Below, piece after piece: positions 13,101-35,847 of a stretch of 35,847 nucleotides of DNA (position 1 is the stretch's first letter; the number at the start of each line of letters is the position of its first letter). A model generated the notes under the pieces. That model saw nothing but the letters and a program-made list of their open reading frames with translations. It was not told where the DNA came from and did not search any database. Source of the DNA: a virus (lineage: Duplodnaviria > Caudoviricetes). The stretch is from positions 1 through 35,847 of IMG/VR virus record IMGVR_UViG_3300030372_004350, one strand, 5' to 3'. A program made the position numbers and the translations under genes.

Positions 13101-14902
13101 AAGCAGGCAAGCTTGGTAACTACAGGAGGAACACGACTCCGGGCTCAGAGGAGTATTTTACCAATCGCGCAGCAGTAGCCGTTGATGAGTCGGGCGTTGG
13201 CAACACGGACTTTGTTGCAGGTGAGTTACTGCGGAGTACGCGCGCTAACTTAACTGGTCAAAACTTTGCAGGCGATATGATGCGTAAACTGCAAACTTTC
13301 GGTGATACTAAACTTGGCTACATCCCACGTAAGCTAAATGAACTTGCCAGCAAAGCATATGCAAAAGAAGATAACTTACCCAAGGTTCACATCGGCATGG
13401 ACCGAGCCCGTCAGACGTTCAGAGACTTATTTGAACTAGAACCAGGCGCTCAGATCACCATACAAACCTCACCGGTATCAACAAGAACACTGTTCAAAGA
13501 CAAAGCCGGTAATCTTCGTGAAGGCAAGCCGTCAAACCCGGGCAGGCTTCTCAGTGAAAATGACATCAATAAAATTGTTGCGGCAGATGTGCGTCGGCAT
13601 GTTCAAAAGTTTGTTGTTAGTTACGACGAGCGCAGTGGTTTGAATAGGTTTGTTGTTTCTAATCCGGCGCTTGCGCCTTTCAATCCGTTCTTTACGTTTA
13701 CTGATAAAGCAGCGGGTTTAGGCGGGCGAAAAGGCTTTGTTGAACACTTGCTGTTCCCGGAAGATGGGTTGACAAGCACGTCGCCTAAAGTGGCTTTGCG
13801 TCAAATCAAGCAACAAGCTGCGCTTGCAGCCAGAAGAGCAGTGTTGGTTAATTCTTTTCAAACGCTCGCCTCAACTCAAGAGAACCTTTTAGCTCAGGCT
13901 CTGGCGTTTGACCCAGGCGTACCAAACAAAGTTATTTTTGAAATGCTTACCGATCCTGACGCTATGATGTATCGTGATATTTCAGGTATGTCTGTGTTTG
14001 GCCCCGGAGAAGTTAAGTATCGAGCATATGCTTGGGCTATGGGCAACATGATGAAAATGTTTGGCATAGATAAGCGCAAAGATTTAACAGCAAAACAAAA
14101 GAGGTTCTTCAACAACCTAAACAATGGTGAGGTTGCAAACATCGGAACTATCGGATCGATCTTTGGTGTTGATCGAGGGCCTGGGTTATCTGCTCTCGAG
14201 ATTGTTATTAACAAAGGACGGGATCGTTACGGCGAGCCTCTTAACTTAGTTAATGAAACAATCAAAAGAGTAGCTCCGTTTGCGGTGCCTGCGCCATTAG
14301 CTGTTGCGTTGCGGGAGTTGGTCACCGCATCGGTCGATGATCTAGCCATTTTTAGTGGCAGGCAAATGGATATTGATGATGTGCAACTCAACGAAGAGCG
14401 GACGGATTATTTACTACGCAGGTTTCTTCTTCAGGGCGGCCGCAAGATTCGGTTTGCGGGCTCAACCAAGTCAGTCATGGAGCGCAAAATCAGACGCATC
14501 GAAGATCACGAACAGGTGCTTAGGAAACAACTGGAAACTCGTTTGCAGTTACTCACAAACGAAAAGCGGGAGTTAGAGCGGCAGATTAAAAAGAACAAAG
14601 AAGGAGGCAACGTCCCTGCGGGTATGCAGATTGAGGAAGAAGGCGATATAGCGGTCTTGGTCAGCGATTTAACGAAAAAACTAGAGAAGAAAAAGAAAGC
14701 TATTGAAAACACCACAAACAACATGCGCAGCGCTTACCGTCGTTTAGCTGTTGTTACAAAAGAGGAAATTATACGTCTCAAGGAAGCGTACGAACAAGTT
14801 CAGAGGATAGGTTCTTTAAGCAAGCGTTTGCGGGCTAGAATGCCTACCGAAAAAGTGCGGTCCCTTCAAGAGCGTCGTCGTATTATGAAGGAGGCGCAAT
14901 GA
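10193..14902 (+). CDS. Putative large internal virion / DNA ejection protein 3
   Basis: 1569 aa, helical, no Cys, TAATG coupling. Largest gene, at the end of the ejection cluster. Confidence 0.6.
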   Translation: MEQPRRKRVTLTEPLVVSDITPPEPGEAEEPSYKLSPIPEQKAPDPRIPKQLPGPAETAKAVGGFVGETFVKPVLRTGQFVKGAALGVQSIFDHIVSGLAANEAMNGLLLRLENPNLTQAQRDAIIDQMEDTENILVDESPLYKVYKEVDNELDTRFKNNSSYTNAISDFGEVVSTFPMMVKAFVDAAYDEDPETMEKLGFMMTGGGVISTVATLNPNKIGRNFDARPASVILGLSPTFGIVARSPKALQVLRGKFGKQTDVLLRAVETFDNTVRSGMAKVAESELPGRVVTEVARPFANVLEGIPTEATRSVAAGLRGFGKTSEDVVRVGEAKTAQGVPGVRGQKPRVTELLPGQRFLTPGDIADSFISGAKKGLFAGEFVAPGLVFAAARVLYPNTRLTRSIQGKVGRLLRHTSAQSGAPAELAVRGLMMASAEQRNRMRSIADRIGKAIQEEGPWRDLQKAQERYNKKKTKKNKRALDKAMRNWEAAGKPEPALSARKGDRRMDVFFEGEPFQPGQRRKIDYEFTESGQEFLVSQAEAKSALKQLEEAQASLLEAQQKPGSKKHTNQQIRSLNAQIKSLKEAIDSDAKAVFPNQTLRQAVDDLGAVLDEAGVGSGIELVKNRLANVADRNAILLQNGDIAELVIRAMKRRYGNRLLRAGVTDSKLRRLISDHAEEPYFGSSRLSATIDIEGIGRINLDDLTRQAFNSLKADKQREVMGQVASNAALRYSQLVTEASKGRAIQREATKLGIGKALEGVPLDSVQPQVYAVALARTLARKDLTRGGVSLPQAIPKSASGPSLAAALRDIASDSRQLEKILRDELGGDFSFRERQNLERVLRQSADEVIHYVSDSPYARSFTDELKRSIADNTALPDDVRKLARDATVGEYAYSPGLAGTLTWLDKYQAKPGFWRDLVMLFKGNATVRNITPHINNSVGNISRAMLSGDEGPRQFVVNSYRDGLVYLDHKAGKLGNYRRNTTPGSEEYFTNRAAVAVDESGVGNTDFVAGELLRSTRANLTGQNFAGDMMRKLQTFGDTKLGYIPRKLNELASKAYAKEDNLPKVHIGMDRARQTFRDLFELEPGAQITIQTSPVSTRTLFKDKAGNLREGKPSNPGRLLSENDINKIVAADVRRHVQKFVVSYDERSGLNRFVVSNPALAPFNPFFTFTDKAAGLGGRKGFVEHLLFPEDGLTSTSPKVALRQIKQQAALAARRAVLVNSFQTLASTQENLLAQALAFDPGVPNKVIFEMLTDPDAMMYRDISGMSVFGPGEVKYRAYAWAMGNMMKMFGIDKRKDLTAKQKRFFNNLNNGEVANIGTIGSIFGVDRGPGLSALEIVINKGRDRYGEPLNLVNETIKRVAPFAVPAPLAVALRELVTASVDDLAIFSGRQMDIDDVQLNEERTDYLLRRFLLQGGRKIRFAGSTKSVMERKIRRIEDHEQVLRKQLETRLQLLTNEKRELERQIKKNKEGGNVPAGMQIEEEGDIAVLVSDLTKKLEKKKKAIENTTNNMRSAYRRLAVVTKEEIIRLKEAYEQVQRIGSLSKRLRARMPTEKVRSLQERRRIMKEAQ

Positions 14903-15288
14903 GCCACGGTTACCCGCCAAACTTTAACCCGTCGGAGTTTCATTGTAAGTGCGGGACGTACTGCGATGGCCCCTCTCCGCACATGGATAAGACCCGCCAT
15001 CTTGCTTGGACGCTACAAGCGATCCGGGATGAAGTGGTAGCTCCTATAAAGATTAACAGCGGGTATCGATGCCCTAAACACAATGAAGCCATCGGTGGCG
15101 CTGAGCATTCCTACCACGTCCGAGGTATGGCAGCAGACCTAGACTGTCCTGCACTTTCTCCCGAAGAACTGGCTAATACTATTGAAGATATGATGGAACA
15201 CGGGCAAATTCCCAACGGCGGGTTAGGACGTTACAACACGTTTACGCACATCGACATCCGCCACCAGAAGGGACGGTGGTCAGGATGA
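14899..15288 (+). CDS. Peptidase M15A family zinc peptidase (probable endolysin)
   Basis: EFxCxC, 'INSGYRCPKHN..IGGA..SYH..GMAAD' and 'GLGRY..FTHIDIR' motifs of Peptidase_M15_3. Confidence 0.9.
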   Translation: MSHGYPPNFNPSEFHCKCGTYCDGPSPHMDKTRHLAWTLQAIRDEVVAPIKINSGYRCPKHNEAIGGAEHSYHVRGMAADLDCPALSPEELANTIEDMMEHGQIPNGGLGRYNTFTHIDIRHQKGRWSG

Positions 15289-15968
15289 GGCGTCATCATT
15301 ACAGAGCATACGGCGGCAGCGTTGGTCAGTTAAAACCGGCAGTGGTAACCCCTGACGCATTATTGAGGTTAGAAAACTTTTCAGGCAACGTTGCTGCCTC
15401 AAAGTGGTTTGACGTATCCAACTCCAATAACGATGGCACGCCAGCAGACGCTGATTTATTGAGCGATTATGTGTTTGATGGTGTCGTTGATTTTGTGCAA
15501 CTGGCAAGCACTGATCCTTCGGCAAGCTTTTCAGCCGATTGGACAATCACATTTTGGTACAAGCGCAACCTAAGCGTAAACAAGTCTACCATCATCGACA
15601 CTCGCGACGGCAGCAGCGGTGGGTACACCATCTTAGATAACAATGGCGCTGCAATAGGAAACTACACAGTACAATTGCGTAATCCTAATGTCGGTCTGGC
15701 AGACAGTTTCGTTGGCACTGACTCAAACTGGCATTTCGGTGCGTTGGTAAACGATTCAGGGGCTAGGATTACAAGCTACATTGATGGCGAAGTGTTTAAA
15801 ACCACAGCAACCGCACATGCTTATCAGCCAGGTATAGCCATGCTAGTAGGCAAGGGTGCAAACAACTTCTTTATTGGAGCTTGTGATACTGTCCGCAGCT
15901 ATCCAAGAATGCTGTCCGCAGATGAAATCAAACGTGATTACTATGTAGGAACCCCGGAGCACTCATGA
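15285..15968 (+). CDS. LamG / concanavalin A-like lectin domain protein (putative head or tail fibre)
   Basis: 'WFDVSNSNNDGT', 'FDGVVDFV', 'WTITFW', 'WHF', 'YIDG', 'Y.RmLSadEI...Y' LamG pattern. ATG at 15285 overlaps the upstream TGA. Confidence 0.8.
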   Translation: MRRHHYRAYGGSVGQLKPAVVTPDALLRLENFSGNVAASKWFDVSNSNNDGTPADADLLSDYVFDGVVDFVQLASTDPSASFSADWTITFWYKRNLSVNKSTIIDTRDGSSGGYTILDNNGAAIGNYTVQLRNPNVGLADSFVGTDSNWHFGALVNDSGARITSYIDGEVFKTTATAHAYQPGIAMLVGKGANNFFIGACDTVRSYPRMLSADEIKRDYYVGTPEHS

Positions 15969-27425: not shown

Positions 27426-27805
27426 TGGCTAAAACCGCAACTAAAACCGATCCCGCTAAATGGGAGCAAGCCAAACGAGACGCCAAGGCTAAGATGGGCG
27501 GTAAGCACAGCGCCCGTGCCATGCAACTTGCTACCCAGATGTACAAAAAGCGAGGCGGTGGTTACTCTGGTCCCAAGAAGGAAACCTCGCTCAGTAAGTG
27601 GACCAAGCAGGACTGGAAGTACTCAAAGAAAGACAAGCCAGGTCAAGGGGGCTCAGGTGTGTACTTGCCCAAGAACCGTATCGCTAGTCTCAAGAGTACA
27701 GCAGCTGGCAGGTTAGCACTCAAGAAGGGTGAGGCGAAAAAAGCCAAAGCAACCCGTGAAGGCAAGCAGTACGCTCAGCATGGTCTAGGTAAAGGGTTGT
27801 CATGA
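27425..27805 (+). CDS. Basic protein, DUF5872-like
   Basis: 'HSARAMQLA...YKKRGGGY', 'SLSKWTKQDW', 'YLPK' match a widespread viral basic family (from recall). Confidence 0.7.
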   Translation: MAKTATKTDPAKWEQAKRDAKAKMGGKHSARAMQLATQMYKKRGGGYSGPKKETSLSKWTKQDWKYSKKDKPGQGGSGVYLPKNRIASLKSTAAGRLALKKGEAKKAKATREGKQYAQHGLGKGLS

Positions 27806-28107
27806 GCACCGACCGCACAGAGGCAGCGCGCCGCATGATGAAGAAGTTAGGGCTCGAGGGGTTCAATAAGCCCAAACGCACTCCTAACCACCCAAAGAAG
27901 TCGCATATGGTCATGGCTAAAGAAGGCAATCAAATCAAGCTGATCCGCTATGGCGAGCAGGGGGCAAGCACAGCAGGTGCGCCTAAACCTAGCGAGTCAA
28001 GGCGCATGAAGATGAAACGTAAATCATTCAAAGCTAGGCACGCTAGAAACATCGCCAAAGGTAAAATGAGCGCAGCGTTCTGGGCTGATAAAACGAAATG
28101 GAGCTAG
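27802..28107 (+). CDS. Basic conserved phage protein
   Basis: 'NKPKRTP.HPKKSH.V.AKEG...KLIR.G.QG...RKSFKARH.....K.SAA.WA....W', a family common in aquatic phages (from recall). Confidence 0.75.
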   Translation: MSTDRTEAARRMMKKLGLEGFNKPKRTPNHPKKSHMVMAKEGNQIKLIRYGEQGASTAGAPKPSESRRMKMKRKSFKARHARNIAKGKMSAAFWADKTKWS

Positions 28108-28111
28108 CGTC

Positions 28112-28264
28112 ATGCATATGATGGACATGAAGGGCAAAGGCAAAAGCAAAGGCAAGAAAAAGCCTATGAAAGCAGCCGCAATCATTGCAATTGTGCCAGT
28201 AGCCAAGATGAAAAAAATTAAAGGCGAGATGCGTAAAGCCGCCGAAGCTAAGGCGAAAAAGTAA
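28112..28264 (+). CDS. 50 aa Lys/Met-rich protein (not in the ORF track)
   Basis: MHMMDMKGKGKSKGKKKPMKAAAIIAIVPVAKMKKIKGEMRKAAEAKAKK. TAATG-coupled to terS. Confidence 0.7.
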   Translation: MHMMDMKGKGKSKGKKKPMKAAAIIAIVPVAKMKKIKGEMRKAAEAKAKK

Positions 28265-28797
28265 TGTCTCGCAAGCCACGTATTATTCTCCCAGCAGCGG
28301 TATGGGCTAAGATCCGTGCCGAGTATGAAGCCGGTGTGCCCGTCAAGCACCTAGCGGATACCTTTAACCTGACTGAAGCAGCCGTCTATCGACGCAAGAA
28401 AAGCGAAGAGTGGTCTAGGGAGGTTTCGGTCATTAGTGACGACATGCTGTCCAAGGCACGCAAGGAAGCTGAGCAGCGCATTGTAGAGCACATCCAAGAG
28501 CGTGAAGTGGACATGAAGCAGGTCATTGACCAACACAAGTCCGTGTCGCAACAGATCATGGATCGTGCAGCAAGCCTACTCGAGGCCGTTGATAAGATCC
28601 CAGATACTGAGGTTTCTAAAAAGGCACACGCTCTGAAGACCTTGTCTGATGTCATCACCGCTCAGATCCGTAACGAGCGACGCACATGGAACATCGATGA
28701 GAAGGGTGCGGACACTTCACTCGAGGCATTGCTCGACGAACTGGATGAAGAAGACGAGAAGCGCAAAGCAACCCCCAAACCTGTGGTCGTACAGTGA
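28264..28797 (+). CDS. terS: Terminase small subunit
   Basis: N-terminal HTH 'W.KIRAEYEAG.PVK.LA..F......VYRRKK.E.W', helical body, upstream of terL. Confidence 0.75.
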   Translation: MSRKPRIILPAAVWAKIRAEYEAGVPVKHLADTFNLTEAAVYRRKKSEEWSREVSVISDDMLSKARKEAEQRIVEHIQEREVDMKQVIDQHKSVSQQIMDRAASLLEAVDKIPDTEVSKKAHALKTLSDVITAQIRNERRTWNIDEKGADTSLEALLDELDEEDEKRKATPKPVVVQ

Positions 28798-29051
28798 GTG
28801 TAGAAACCATCGAACTAATAAAGATGGTACTCAATGGCGCTGATGGAGCGCTGGTGGTTGTCCTGATCTATACGCTCAACCGAGCGCATGCGTGGACCAA
28901 GCGCGTTGAAGACGCTATTGAAAATATTGAGCGACTCAATAAGATTGTAGAAGATAACCAGTCGGACATCGCCAAGCTTAGGCGTATGTTCTTTGCCCTG
29001 AAGGATGAGTTACGACATGCCAAAAATGAGAGCCAACAACCAAGTCATTGA
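28794..29051 (+). CDS. Small membrane protein (TM plus coiled coil)
   Basis: GTGA-coupled. 'GALVVVLIYTL' followed by heptads. Confidence 0.6.
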   Translation: MSVETIELIKMVLNGADGALVVVLIYTLNRAHAWTKRVEDAIENIERLNKIVEDNQSDIAKLRRMFFALKDELRHAKNESQQPSH

Positions 29052-31918: not shown

Positions 31919-33181
31919 ATGGCTGCTACTTTAACTACGTTAAGCGCAGTGATGAAACAGTTCTACTTGGGGCCTTTGCAGGACCAGTTGAACAATGAAA
32001 TCATGGCGTTTGATCTCTTTCAAAAAGAAAAAGTCGATTGGGTTGGTCGTGAAGCGATTATCCCTGTCCGCACGGCTCGCAACAGCCAGACGGCATTTAG
32101 TGCTACTGCTGCGCTGCCTATCGCAGGCCAGCAAACGTACGCTTCGCTGACGGTGTCGGCCAAGTACTTGTACGGTCGCATGGAAATCCAAGGCCCGGCA
32201 ATTGCTCAGGCTAAAGCCAGCGTTGGTGCGTTCATCAACGGCCTTCAGGTTGAGCTTGATGGTGCAATGGAAACCGTCAAGAACAGTGCTGATCAAGCAA
32301 TGTTTACCGGCGGTGGTGCTGTTGGTTTCCTCAACGAGCGTGAAAACTTTGCTCTTAACACCAATATCGAATTTTCAGGTAACATTGATTTGATTCCTGA
32401 AGGTGCTGGCTCTAAAGTTGCGGGTACGCTTGTTCGACTCGACACCTACAAGTCGATTGGTGTCACGATGTATCGTGACGCAGGCGCAAAGCAACACATC
32501 AAGTTTGATGCTGGTGTTGACACGCGTGACATTGATGGTTCGGGAACTGCTCCTGCGGGCACTGCTCACCTTGTTATCATTGGTGGCAAGACTGCTGAGT
32601 CCATGGGTATCTATGGTAACCTTGGTGAGAAGACGCACTTCGGTGTTGATCGAAGTACGGGCACTGACGTTGTGCTGCAAAGCATTGTTCGTGCGGCTAA
32701 CACAGCCGGTACGGGTGATCGTGTTGATCTAAACACAGGTCGTATGCAAGCAATCCTTGATGACATTGCTACCGACTCAGGCACCACGCCTGACTGCATG
32801 ATTGCGCACTATGTGTTCCGTCAGCAGTACGTCGGTCAGTTGTCGTTCGTAAGCCCTGCCGGTGGTTCCGAAGCCACTAGCCGTACCAAGTCTGTGGACA
32901 ACGGTGATGCTGGGTTCGACATGGGGCGCTTGGCCTTCAACGGTATTCCGCTCAAGGTCAGCCGTCACTGCGGTAAGGGTCTGTTGATCTTCCTCCACAC
33001 CAAGTCTTGGTCGTTGGTGCAGATCGAAGATCCGAACTTGGCTGACTTGGATGGTAACGTCCTTAGCCGAGTTACGGGTAGCGACTCGTACGAAGCCTAC
33101 GTCCGGTACTACTACAACTTGGTTTGCAAGCAGCCTAATCGCAATGCGATCTTGGTCGGCTTGAACTTCCCGGCAGCGTAG
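31919..33181 (+). CDS. Major capsid protein (HK97 fold)
   Basis: 420 aa, strong TAAGGA RBS. 'mKq.Y.gpl.dQLN', 'KYLYG...I.G.AI', 'fnGIPl......C', 'Y.nl.C..PNrna.l' pattern. Confidence 0.85.
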   Translation: MAATLTTLSAVMKQFYLGPLQDQLNNEIMAFDLFQKEKVDWVGREAIIPVRTARNSQTAFSATAALPIAGQQTYASLTVSAKYLYGRMEIQGPAIAQAKASVGAFINGLQVELDGAMETVKNSADQAMFTGGGAVGFLNERENFALNTNIEFSGNIDLIPEGAGSKVAGTLVRLDTYKSIGVTMYRDAGAKQHIKFDAGVDTRDIDGSGTAPAGTAHLVIIGGKTAESMGIYGNLGEKTHFGVDRSTGTDVVLQSIVRAANTAGTGDRVDLNTGRMQAILDDIATDSGTTPDCMIAHYVFRQQYVGQLSFVSPAGGSEATSRTKSVDNGDAGFDMGRLAFNGIPLKVSRHCGKGLLIFLHTKSWSLVQIEDPNLADLDGNVLSRVTGSDSYEAYVRYYYNLVCKQPNRNAILVGLNFPAA

Positions 33182-33188
33182 TACTCAC

Positions 33189-33335
33189 GTGGAGTGGATT
33201 GCTCTCTCACTGGATCTGGCTCAGACCGCGTTGGTGTTTATCATCTGGCGTGATGTTCGGAACTGGTGGGGGAGTGATCCCTCTGAGGACGTTAACAAAC
33301 CTTTCTCGCCTCAAGATATTCTTGGGGAACCATAG
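33189..33335 (+). CDS. 48 aa putative membrane peptide (not in the ORF track)
   Basis: GTG start, MEWIALSLDLAQTALVFIIWRDVRNWWGSDPSEDVNKPFSPQDILGEP. Fills the gap after the MCP. Confidence 0.5.
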   Translation: MEWIALSLDLAQTALVFIIWRDVRNWWGSDPSEDVNKPFSPQDILGEP

Positions 33336-33343
33336 GTGGTCAA

Positions 33344-33580
33344 ATGAAGAATGGCGGAACTGGTTGGCGTAAGATTGTTATGGGGATCGCAGCAGCGCTG
33401 TTGCCGTTGGTCCTTCGTGCTATCAATCCTGAAATGCCGGTCGAAGAAATCGTTGTGAGTGTTATGGGCTTGCTTGGTGCAATCCTAGGTGTCGCTTGGC
33501 AGGATGCTGCTAAAGAAAAGCGAGCGGCCTTGGAGAGCGTCAATAACCCCCCGGCACCATCCCCAGAAACCCAGGGATAA
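33344..33580 (+). CDS. Two-TM holin-like protein
   Basis: 'WRK' then two hydrophobic helices, 'G.AWQD', charged tail. AGGTGG RBS. Confidence 0.7.
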   Translation: MKNGGTGWRKIVMGIAAALLPLVLRAINPEMPVEEIVVSVMGLLGAILGVAWQDAAKEKRAALESVNNPPAPSPETQG

Positions 33581-33774
33581 AGAATCTTGATCCGAAGGAT
33601 TCTGGGGGCCTCGATCTCAACCTTGGCAGCAACGACGATCTTTGGTTTGTCCGTGGGGATCTTACTCATCGTGTCAGCAAGCAATTTGAAGTCGGGATGA
33701 CAGGCGAGATTAAATCAGACTGGGGCGGTGATCCTGAATGGGCTGTCGGCGCTGGTCTCAAATGGAGATGGTAA
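33547..33774 (+). CDS. Start-less ORF in the -1 frame encoding four amphipathic beta-strands (candidate frameshift extension of the holin-like gene)
   Basis: 75 open codons ending ...EWAVGAGLKWRW. No ATG/GTG/TTG until the last third. Fills the gap to the next gene exactly. Confidence 0.55.
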   Translation, partial: PPGTIPRNPGIKNLDPKDSGGLDLNLGSNDDLWFVRGDLTHRVSKQFEVGMTGEIKSDWGGDPEWAVGAGLKWRW

Positions 33775-33775
33775 C

Positions 33776-33994
33776 ATGGCCTATGTAGGCTTCAAGAAGT
33801 TACAAGGTAAACTCGAGGCTCAGGGTAAAAGCCCTAAAGCTGCTGGTGCTATTGCTGCCTCAATCGGCCGCAAGAAGTACGGTAAGAAGAAGTTCAATAA
33901 AGCAGCGGCTGAAGGTAAGTCCTTGCGTGGTGCCGCAGCGAAGCGCATCAAGAGTAAGATGGACTACTCCAAACAAAATGTTAGTTATTCGTAA
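33776..33994 (+). CDS. Small basic conserved phage protein
   Basis: GGAG RBS before ATG 33776. 'GFKKL...AIAASIGRKKYGKKKF' motif. Confidence 0.72.
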   Translation: MAYVGFKKLQGKLEAQGKSPKAAGAIAASIGRKKYGKKKFNKAAAEGKSLRGAAAKRIKSKMDYSKQNVSYS

Positions 33995-34003
33995 GGTAGA
34001 GAC

Positions 34004-35847
34004 ATGAAGATTCCTGACGCAGGTAAACTCTCGGATCAGATTGCAAAGTGTAGAAGTGATCGGCAGAAGTTTGCTCGTGCTTGGGATCTTTGCTTGTTGT
34101 TTCTTCAGGGTAAGCAGCACGTTAAATACGACAGGGTAAAGCAAACCTTCGTGCGCACGGGCGCTGACGAGATGCAGGTAACCATTAACCTGATCGTCAA
34201 TATCTACCGCAACGTTCAGGCTCGCCTAACACTGGCTTACCCATCAGCCACCGTGTTGCCCGCCAGCGAATCAAACGAAGACATTATCAAAGCAAAGAGC
34301 TGCGAGTACGCACTCAAGTATTACTGGAACAGTGACAAGCTTAAGCGCAAGATGGTGGACGCTATCCGGTGGTTGCTGACTTGTGGCAACGTGGGAATGC
34401 ACACCAAGTACAACGGCGAGAAAGTAACCACTGAGGTTATTAGTCCTTACGATTTGTACTTTGAGCCTGGTCTTGATGACCCTGAGCAGTGCAACTGGAT
34501 TGCGTACGCTAAGCTTGTCAATCGTGAAGAACTTGAGGAAGCGTACCCAAATAAGAAAGACGTAATTAAGAACGCTGCTGATGCGACGAACGCTACTCCG
34601 GGTGCTTCATGGTTCAGGCTTCGTCAAACGTCGGTACCGAAAGATAGGGTTGAGATTTATGATGTTTACTTTCGCAGCGGTGAGCGTCGGGTTGTTCTTG
34701 GTGGTAGTTATCTTTTTGAGGGGGAGTGGGTAGGTAAAACCATGCCGATCCAGTTTATCCGTTACACACCAGTACCGGGTCAGCTGTGGGGTATGGGCAT
34801 GATTGAGCCGTTGCTCGATATTCAGGACCAGTACAACCGAGTGCGTGGTCAGATTATCGAGAACAGTGATCTGATCGCCAACCCGAAGTGGATGATCCCA
34901 AAGAGCGCAGGTGTTCCACCAGCAAGTATTACTCGTCGGCGTGGTGAGAAAGTCTACTACAACGACGTAGGTGGCCAGCGGCCTATTCCGGTTCAGATGC
35001 CGTCTTTACCTGGTTACGTTCTTCAGCAGGTGTCAGTACTGCACGGAGAGATGCTAGACGTGGCTGGCGTCCACGCTACAAGCCTTGGCAAGCGAGCGGT
35101 AGGGGTTACCTCCAGTGTTGCTATGCAGTCGCTTGCAAACAAAGACTCGCAACAGTTGATGGTGACACAAGAAGACTTAGAAGAAGCTGTAGTCGATCTA
35201 AGCAAGGTCGTGCTGACGCTTATGCAAAAGTATTACACCGAGAAGCGTATGGTTCGCATGCTCGACAATCTCGGCCAAGTTGTGTTCCAGTCACTAGACA
35301 GCACAAGCTTAATGAAAGATCCTGAAGTCTTCATTGAAGCAGGTTCGATGTTCCGTGATGAGCGTAAAGATCGCGATCAAAAGGTTCTTGAGTTAGTTCA
35401 GATGGGCATGATGCAACCCGACGAAGCGATGAAGGAACTGACGTTTGGTAACGGGCTTGAGCAGGTCAGTGAGAAACTTCAATCTATGGCGCATGCTCAG
35501 GATCTGCTTAACGCTGCGAAAGTTGGCGCTACGATTGAGATCTTCCCAACCGATGACCTAAAGTCGTTTGGTGAAGTCTTTGGTGACTATATCCGTACTG
35601 AGGAATACTACCAACTACCTCAAGAGCGGCAGCAGTACATCCGAGACATCTTCATTAGTGTTGAGACGTTCGGCACGCAGGCTGAGGTCCAAGCTGAGGC
35701 GCTCGCCAACCGCAAGGTGTTCCCTCGCTCTGCGCCTCCAGAGCAGCTAGATGAGATTTCAGTCACCATGGAATCGCCGACATCGGCTATTCAAGCGCAG
35801 ATGGAATCAGAGCGCATGGGTGTTATGGATATGAACCGGCAAATGGT
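34004..35847 (+). CDS. Portal protein (3'-truncated by the window end; not in the ORF track)
   Basis: ATG at 34004 with TAAGG RBS (MKIPDAGKL...). In frame with ATG 34742, which equals position 81 of the left copy. Confidence 0.87.
   Translation, partial: MKIPDAGKLSDQIAKCRSDRQKFARAWDLCLLFLQGKQHVKYDRVKQTFVRTGADEMQVTINLIVNIYRNVQARLTLAYPSATVLPASESNEDIIKAKSCEYALKYYWNSDKLKRKMVDAIRWLLTCGNVGMHTKYNGEKVTTEVISPYDLYFEPGLDDPEQCNWIAYAKLVNREELEEAYPNKKDVIKNAADATNATPGASWFRLRQTSVPKDRVEIYDVYFRSGERRVVLGGSYLFEGEWVGKTMPIQFIRYTPVPGQLWGMGMIEPLLDIQDQYNRVRGQIIENSDLIANPKWMIPKSAGVPPASITRRRGEKVYYNDVGGQRPIPVQMPSLPGYVLQQVSVLHGEMLDVAGVHATSLGKRAVGVTSSVAMQSLANKDSQQLMVTQEDLEEAVVDLSKVVLTLMQKYYTEKRMVRMLDNLGQVVFQSLDSTSLMKDPEVFIEAGSMFRDERKDRDQKVLELVQMGMMQPDEAMKELTFGNGLEQVSEKLQSMAHAQDLLNAAKVGATIEIFPTDDLKSFGEVFGDYIRTEEYYQLPQERQQYIRDIFISVETFGTQAEVQAEALANRKVFPRSAPPEQLDEISVTMESPTSAIQAQMESERMGVMDMNRQM
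34662..35847 (+). repeat. Imperfect direct repeat, right copy (pairs with 1-1186)
   Basis: Same alignment as the left copy. Confidence 0.97.

Follow-up and report, generated by a model that had tools for sequence, protein, structure and literature searches.

A holin-like phage gene with a probable −1 frameshift extension into a predicted outer-membrane-like β-strand domain

Introduction

Among 677 phages that infect Gram-negative bacteria, 91 had no recognisable spanin (PMC6139136, in part), which raises the question of how such phages cross the outer membrane. The window analysed here, the whole of a 35,847-nt stretch from a Caudoviricetes record (IMG/VR IMGVR_UViG_3300030372_004350), contains a locus that is a concrete candidate for spanin-less outer-membrane crossing. 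A gene for a small, holin-like membrane protein ends within an open −1 frame (the tail), which gene callers overlook because it has no start codon. How is this frame read, what does it encode, and could its product act in lysis?

Genome and position of the locus

The virus record is rated 100% complete by CheckV. Its terminal redundancy of 1186 nt lies inside the portal gene; the two copies, 1-1186 and 34661-35847, share 92% nucleotide and 98% protein identity, and the two genome ends derive from different phage strains. The stretch occurs in marine metagenomes (20 runs, 13 studies; one run, X1, is a possible source), with no RNA dataset among those listed. The late strand carries, in order, the small and large terminase subunits, a probable scaffold, the major capsid protein, the locus, a basic ORF of 72 aa and a P22-like portal. 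Two genes outside the locus recur below:

31919-33181, late strand: major capsid protein
14899-15288, + strand: peptidase M15 endolysin, the presumed partner of the locus, 18 kb off here and adjacent in some relatives

Several smaller ORFs accompany these genes. A 48-aa ORF (33189-33335) separates the capsid gene from the locus. Its N-terminal part is hydrophobic, and it is kept in the relatives L007, L010 and L036; the L036 copy has no family match. An 85-aa ORF (28794-29051) combines an N-terminal hydrophobic stretch with a coiled coil, as does a gene found upstream of the locus in clades D and E of the relatives; on this resemblance in build it is a candidate second holin or i-spanin-like protein. 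Small, very basic late ORFs are present at 33776-33994, 27802-28107 and 28112-28264, and similar ORFs flank the locus in many relatives. The endolysin gene is followed directly by a gene with a LamG/concanavalin-like domain (15276-15968); L037-L040 likewise have a long gene there. A promoter-like site scored no better than chance.

The two-helix reading frame

33334-33339, + strand: AGGTGG, Shine-Dalgarno-like sequence of the two-helix ORF
33344-33580, + strand: two-helix, holin-like membrane protein of 78 aa (frame 0), predicted N-in/C-in

The ORF has the coordinates originally given, with 78 residues and an end of CAG GGA TAA (33580). Hydropathy places TM1 at residues 11-27 and TM2 at residues 36-52, with a KD value of 2.34 each; TM2 is strong here and weak only in clades D and E (0.97-1.86). 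The charges of the N-terminus (+3/0), the loop (0/−3) and the C-terminus (+3/−3) favour an N-in/C-in arrangement. The tail is therefore expected to begin on the cytoplasmic side, and the caveat of the original prediction, that a simple topology puts the C-terminus in the cytoplasm, stands by the charge rule.

Judged by hydropathy and charges, the 78-aa ORF has the form of a class II holin: small, with two helices and both ends inside. It has no significant match in Pfam or PHROG, holin families included; the corresponding ORF of the relative L037 matches holin phrog_9987 weakly (E 0.017). Neither the ORF nor the tail contains a cysteine, so there is no lipobox in either. The short form is probably an inner-membrane, holin-type lysis protein.

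The −1 frame and its slip site

33544-33546, + strand: stop codon of the −1 frame (TAA), 5′ of which the shift cannot lie; 7 of 16 clade-A sequences have TAA or TAG at this position
33547-33553, + strand: slip site C_CCC_CCG; C_CCC is invariant in 16 of 16 clade-A sequences
33547-33774, + strand: −1 frame, encoding a linker and four amphipathic β-strands

The −1 frame is open over 33547-33774, as claimed earlier, and ends in TAA (33772-33774) 1 nt before the ATG at 33776. It has no usable start, the first ATG, GTG or TTG coming not before residue 51. The stretch first quoted from this frame is real but incomplete, as nine further residues precede it and are under selection. The long product would comprise 69 + 74 = 143 residues, in agreement with the fusion of about 143 aa that had been proposed.

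Two slip sites had been put forward, G_GGA_UAA and C_CCC_CCG, and substitutions among 16 sequences of clade A, to which this phage belongs, distinguish them. Of the 11 distinct substitutions between 33547 and the stop, 7 leave the −1 product unchanged and 3 the frame-0 product. The segment directly 5′, taken as a control, has 1 of 27 synonymous in the −1 frame and 21 of 27 in frame 0; downstream the counts are 40 of 67 and 16 of 67. The synonymous counts flip between the frames at 33547, and selection therefore changes frame at the C run. This switch, and the −1 stop just 5′, support slippage at C_CCC_CCG, a non-canonical bacterial site. The G_GGA_UAA site is eliminated because the GGA codon before the stop is GAA, GAT or GGC in 15 of the 16 sequences; an ATA at 33577 is likewise eliminated as a start of the −1 frame, being TTA or CTA in 7 of them. 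A 1-nt assembly error in the C run, raised earlier as a caveat, is contradicted by contigs of three metagenome runs (X1, X3, X10), which differ by substitutions and have no indel; a fourth run, X9, yielded no contig.

In this clade the same products could instead arise by RNA-polymerase slippage on the run of five to six C residues. The site is a C run, the C_CCC_CAG that replaces C_CCC_CCG in three clade-A loci breaks tandem re-pairing, and context-dependent slippage at T5C5 exists (PMC5009743, in part). Against this, the in-register X_XXY_YYZ heptamers of relatives are not homopolymers and a stem lies 3′ of the site at the spacing of a stimulator (see below); we consider polymerase slippage very improbable. 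For the C_CCC_CAG loci, what is described of Z_ZZN-type sites (PMC5009743, in part) suggests a single slippage.

Conservation of the −1 overlap among relatives

Relatives were gathered by scanning viral and metagenome contigs, genomes and the record itself, which gave 157 loci. A profile of the tail matches 150 of these; the other seven (L073, L075, L088, L090, L094, L104 and L156), chance motifs or partial loci, were dropped. Merging of duplicates left 63 distinct loci, one identical to this stretch, and the 60 with upstream DNA were counted, the remaining three being cut by contig ends. Selection of loci relied on the tail, or on just its last strand, and took no account of the slip site, of the ORF upstream or of the nested segment described below.

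A hydrophobic ORF ending in a −1 overlap is found in 60 of 60 distinct loci, and an in-frame fusion of ORF and tail in none. An in-register X_XXY_YYZ heptamer is present in 57 loci, so that both the offset and the slip site, which were to be looked for in relatives, are conserved. The heptamers are of eight kinds: A_AAA_AAG (15 loci), C_CCC_CCG (14), G_GGA_AAG (14), G_GGA_AAC (4), C_CCU_UUG (4), A_AAC_CCY (3), A_AAA_AAC (2) and C_CCU_UUA (1). The three loci that have no full heptamer still keep C_CCC. The heptamer lies 71-84 codons before the end of the frame and 0-33 nt before the stop; in the ordinary genes of the window such heptamers occupy 17 of 6991 in-frame positions. On a tree of 50 clearly homologous tails, built from few columns and with many weak forks, the heptamer label changes nine times, which indicates that the slippery property is maintained while the letters turn over.

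These data also bear on whether the −1 frame could be an independently started gene, a damaged gene or a product of misassembly. Early starts do occur in the −1 frame of some relatives (ATG in four of 60 loci, all of clade D, and GTG or TTG in eight), and gene callers list two HMM-found tail fragments, P0019 and P0025, as proteins. All 12 start-bearing loci also carry the heptamer, however, and in 48 of 60, including 17 of 17 in clade A, there is no ATG, GTG or TTG for the tail. Given in addition the onset of selection at the C run and the absence of indels in three runs, a separate or damaged gene is scarcely credible.

The ten loci of clades D and E have the same architecture and last strand, with little other sequence in common with clade A. 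Profile comparison with this clade gives a probability of 95 with the last strand and 0.19 without it, and 4.3 for the two-helix ORFs. Since sharing is limited to architecture and last strand, their loci are only probably homologous to that of this phage.

A profile search of 1.84 billion representative proteins with the narrow alignment A1 returned seven matches, three of them relatives. One protein, P0022 (91 aa), has helix 1 in frame with a tail and contains neither TM2 nor the linker. It comes from a single 550-nt contig and is a natural deletion or a misassembly; it was rejected as proof of a natural fusion, as the closest locus (L123:2270-2689, 85% identical) is split and carries A_AAA_AAG. 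Longer fused forms were not found among proteins of 148-2000 aa, a range that lies above the 143-aa fusion. No relatives were found in cultured phages or in GTDB genomes, apart from one 11-residue chance match in the latter, and a word-based protein search with the tail gave no useful match.

Taken together, these comparisons make it highly probable that a programmed −1 ribosomal frameshift makes the tail-bearing form, in a conserved gene architecture.

RNA structures downstream of the slip site

33560-33608, + strand: stem-loop, predicted frameshift stimulator, starting 6 nt 3′ of the heptamer; MFE −22.6
33611-33695, + strand: second predicted RNA stem, in clade A, competing with the nested ORF to explain low synonymous change

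The stem-loop has z scores of −1.7 to −1.9 and is kept in clade A with one-sided changes, two-sided compensation being absent among ten sequences. The region 33561-33640 folds at −25.9 kcal/mol, with a longer stem. An 8-bp hairpin at 33581-33603, noted in the original prediction, is present where it was placed, but its role as a stimulator does not hold up: alone it amounts to −7.7 kcal/mol, it is displaced by the longer stem and it is altered in relatives. A possible pseudoknot, in which 33571-76 would pair with 33621-26, was spotted by eye.

Stable stems (z ≤ −1.5) follow the site in 18 of 24 loci with C_CCC_CCG, C_CCC_CAG, G_GGA_AAC or A_AAC_CCY and in just 3 of 29 with A_AAA_AAG or G_GGA_AAG, a trend that rests on about three independent lineages. 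The last two heptamers are highly shift-prone in E. coli (PMC5009743, in part). The loci L148, L149 and L150, with A_AAC_CCY, form a second lineage with proline codons at the site; L148 and L150 have the strongest downstream stems of the whole set (z about −4).

A nested hydrophobic segment in frame 0

33581-33700, + strand: nested frame-0 hydrophobic segment of 39 codons with one predicted TM helix; candidate start TTG at 33587, no ATG

This segment, which begins directly after the frame-0 stop, was overlooked in the earlier work on this DNA. Frame 0 is hydrophobic after the stop (KD19 ≥ 1.7) in all 60 loci, compared with 6 of 105 control windows. Relative to synonymous recoding of the same tail, the hydrophobicity has P ≤ 0.02 in 50 of 60 loci, which as kin are not independent, and in 4 of 105 controls. 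Synonymous change in the −1 frame over the nested stretch is 0.12 in clade A, 0.11 in clade B and 0.13 in clade D, against 0.30-0.56 on either side; clade E is mixed, with suppression in one of three pairs.

How the segment might be translated appears to differ between clades. It has an ATG in 21 of 60 loci, and a good Shine-Dalgarno sequence precedes the ATG in the nine D/E loci tested. In clade A, the TTG at 33587 is TTA in 7 of 17 loci. Readthrough of the stop was discarded as a general route, since extra stops precede the ATG in ten loci; it may still operate in clade A, that of this phage. On sequence evidence, a one-helix microprotein from the nested frame is likely in clades D and E, and for this phage it is uncertain.

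Predicted fold of the tail

~33604-33630, 33640-33672, 33685-33720 and 33736-33765, + strand: the four β-strands of the AlphaFold model
33748-33771, + strand: C-terminal, β-signal-like octapeptide; Gly, aromatic and terminal aromatic residues present, first residue Gly and not polar

The reading of the −1 frame as four strands is upheld by AlphaFold, which models this tail as four antiparallel strands (E20-28, E32-42, E47-58 and E64-73) with a mean pLDDT of 76. In the long product the strands are preceded by the two helices and a linker of about 36 residues. They are amphipathic, with one hydrophobic face that has Trp at the strand ends and one charged face. The clade-E model features an extra helix ahead of the strands, which is absent from the model for this phage.

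The consensus β-signal is polar-x-G-x-x-aromatic-x-aromatic (PMC10945584, in part). Its core is found in 23 of 23 aligned rows and the full motif with a polar first residue in 18, this phage not among them, counts that are partly circular because many loci were retrieved by that motif. The Gly at −6, the terminal aromatic and the Trp residues at strand ends are kept, also in the HMM-found P0019 and P0025.

The nearest folds are membrane anchors. Against the PDB, the top Foldseek matches are the trimeric-autotransporter anchors of AtaA (E 0.05), Hia (0.12) and YadA (0.45), interleaved with methyltransferase sheets; against viral models they are phage YadA-like trimeric-autotransporter anchors (E 5.8e-3). 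VIA gave Z values of up to 7.4, for porins and RNA-phage coat sheets alike. A fold search with the clade-E model found the strands of EspP at E 0.07. None of these matches is significant, all falling short of Z 8 and of E 0.001. In the Atlas, the tail of a relative has features that resemble autotransporter-like clusters (0.97). Pfam gave no families for 12 of 12 and 3 of 3 tails, and PDB sequences gave no match at E 10. An identity with Phage_OMP (PF24653), an Atlas lead at 0.90, was rejected for want of an HMM match.

The suggested autotransporter-like, outer-membrane-like character of the tail is thus borne out by the nearest folds and by the β-signal core, and stops short of a significant match. 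The tail is predicted, with somewhat better than even confidence, to be a subunit of an oligomeric membrane β-barrel. Giant viruses and cyanophages encode separate proteins of 68-120 aa that are similar to the tail (Atlas, BFVD), which may point to a broader class of mini-barrels among viruses.

Genomic neighbourhood and a possible role in lysis

The flanking DNA available per locus ranges from about 0.1 to 3.4 kb. Within it, an M15 endolysin is present at 25 of 60 loci, its frame beginning less than 100 nt downstream in eight, and the tightest linkage is seen in clades D and E, where a gene for a helix and a coiled coil precedes the locus. Another 27 loci, including this one, have a capsid or portal gene as neighbour and lack an endolysin in the available flanks; eight have neither type of neighbour and none has both, which suggests that the locus moves as a unit. 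In two clade-B loci (L037:4083-4457 and L039:3687-4058), a gene for a helix and a coiled coil lies 0.5-0.9 kb downstream of the locus; we take it to be BhlA-type holin-like.

The placement between or beside the major capsid and portal genes, as here, would fit a role in the virion or in its morphogenesis, such as that of a membrane tether or of part of a DNA-entry channel, with the frameshift setting a copy ratio as in tail chaperones. The 25 loci that lie near an endolysin instead, with none near both, argue against such a role, as does the rarity of membrane proteins with two helices among tailed virions; it is improbable.

For lipoprotein spanins in this phage, scans for a lipobox, which were ad hoc heuristics without a positive control, gave no candidate in strict form and 4 of 297 ORFs in lenient form, all of them overlapping other frames or antisense and none a plausible lipoprotein. 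The reading to which we tentatively lean is that the locus could be a lysis module, in which a minor frameshift product gives an outer-membrane barrel that replaces the lipoprotein spanin.

In this scheme, two proteins would be made, the holin-like form of 78 aa and a minor form of 143 aa, in a ratio fixed by the frameshift; ribosomes would shift by −1, probably when tRNA-Pro slips on C_CCC, just 5′ of the stem-loop. The tail would oligomerise into an outer-membrane barrel. Being made on the cytoplasmic side, it would reach the outer membrane only after the formation of holin holes and removal of the wall by the M15 endolysin; alternatively, where TM2 is weak, translocation of TM2 might carry the tail across. 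Still anchored in the inner membrane, the tail would then insert, whether helped by BAM or unaided, and perforate or join the membranes. A third, one-helix product would come from the nested frame. The transit of the tail from the cytoplasm to the outer membrane is the weakest step: with the predicted cytoplasmic ends, it must cross holin holes or follow a translocated TM2, on a linker of about 36 residues. A bolder version of this scheme is more doubtful: a new class of phage lysis module, in which 430 nt would encode a holin, a holin-barrel chain that bridges or perforates both membranes with a β-barrel in place of a lipid anchor, and a one-helix partner from the nested frame, and would take the place of spanins across a widespread marine phage group.

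That transit would be dispensed with if the tail stayed inside and the long form were a cytoplasm-facing regulator of the holin, an antiholin or an oligomerising cap, the frameshift ratio setting the time of lysis. Lambda S, through its dual start (S105/S107), fixes a holin-to-regulator ratio. The predicted C-in topology and the endolysin linkage in 25 of 60 loci agree with such a regulator, and in lambda G/GT the ratio of the products is set by a frameshift (PMC5009743, in part). A tail that remained cytoplasmic is harder to reconcile with the retention of the Gly at −6, the terminal aromatic and the strand-end Trp residues, in P0019 and P0025 as well, and with closest folds that are outer-membrane anchors; we consider this reading fairly unlikely.

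The same β-signal, and the phage-borne YadA-like anchors as nearest viral folds, would also suit a non-lytic outer-membrane protein, which might form a small pore, block superinfection or jam BAM as a β-signal decoy, with the helices as an export signal or tether. P0022, which joins helix 1 straight to the tail, resembles a signal followed by a barrel, but it is the single short contig whose closest locus, L123, is split with A_AAA_AAG. The gene is placed in late operons and TM2 should halt export here, and a non-lytic role is unlikely.

Comparison with known systems

The slip site of lambda G/GT is G_GGA_AAG, and its heptamer and that of E. coli dnaX are also found in 29 of 60 loci. Like the present locus, G/GT and dnaX (A_AAA_AAG) have a start-less, overlapping −1 frame, a heptamer shortly before the stop, and a short and a long product that share their N-terminus (PMC5009743, in part). 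Unlike them, the gene here encodes a two-helix membrane protein, uses C_CCC_CCG and contains a third, nested frame-0 segment. Even if the lysis role fails, the locus offers a probable phage frameshift that is conserved and concerns neither tail nor capsid genes. Its slip sites, of at least eight kinds, are interchangeable, the weaker ones are accompanied by stems, and one DNA stretch is used three times over.

Class II holins and pinholins likewise have 70-80 aa, two helices, a basic N-terminus and a charged C-terminal tail, and an endolysin is near many of the relatives; as a sequence link to holins there is the weak PHROG match in one relative. The disruptin gp28 of phage phiKT likewise disrupts the outer membrane in a spanin-less phage; this cationic peptide of 56 aa, which has been compared to LL-37, reaches both membranes without a holin (10.1101/515445, in part) and is therefore not an example of passage by way of holin holes.

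Among titles and abstract openings of a mostly open literature, there was no report of a holin lengthened by a frameshift, nor of a holin-like gene continued in this way into a barrel, and the architecture is apparently unpublished. In the accessible part of PMC12596118 the words 'frameshift' and 'barrel' do not occur. Lcc6 has been described as an extra membrane lysis factor of 65 aa (10.1101/2024.01.23.576932, in part).

With the spanins (lambda Rz/Rz1, T1 gp11) the locus has in common that overlapping frames at one place supply both an anchor in the inner membrane and a part directed to the outer membrane; T1 gp11 consists of a single chain with β structure (PMC6139136, in part). The locus differs from spanins in that it has no lipobox, its long form would be made by frameshift and is predicted C-in, and its putative outer-membrane end is a C-terminal barrel, the reverse of gp11.

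The trimeric autotransporter anchors (YadA, Hia, AtaA; type Vc), obligate trimers with a barrel of 12 strands, share four C-terminal strands and a terminal aromatic residue with the tail and head its Foldseek matches, and the clade-E model, with its helix before the strands, resembles them further. The lumen of an autotransporter barrel is filled by a helix; compared with this, the presumed lumen-facing side of the tail is large and charged. Trimeric autotransporters are defined by a cleaved Sec signal and an exported passenger (PMC7247746, in part), whereas the tail has no cleavable signal or passenger and no sequence match in Pfam or the PDB. A four-strand barrel subunit carried on an inner-membrane protein would probe how BAM handles tethered substrates.
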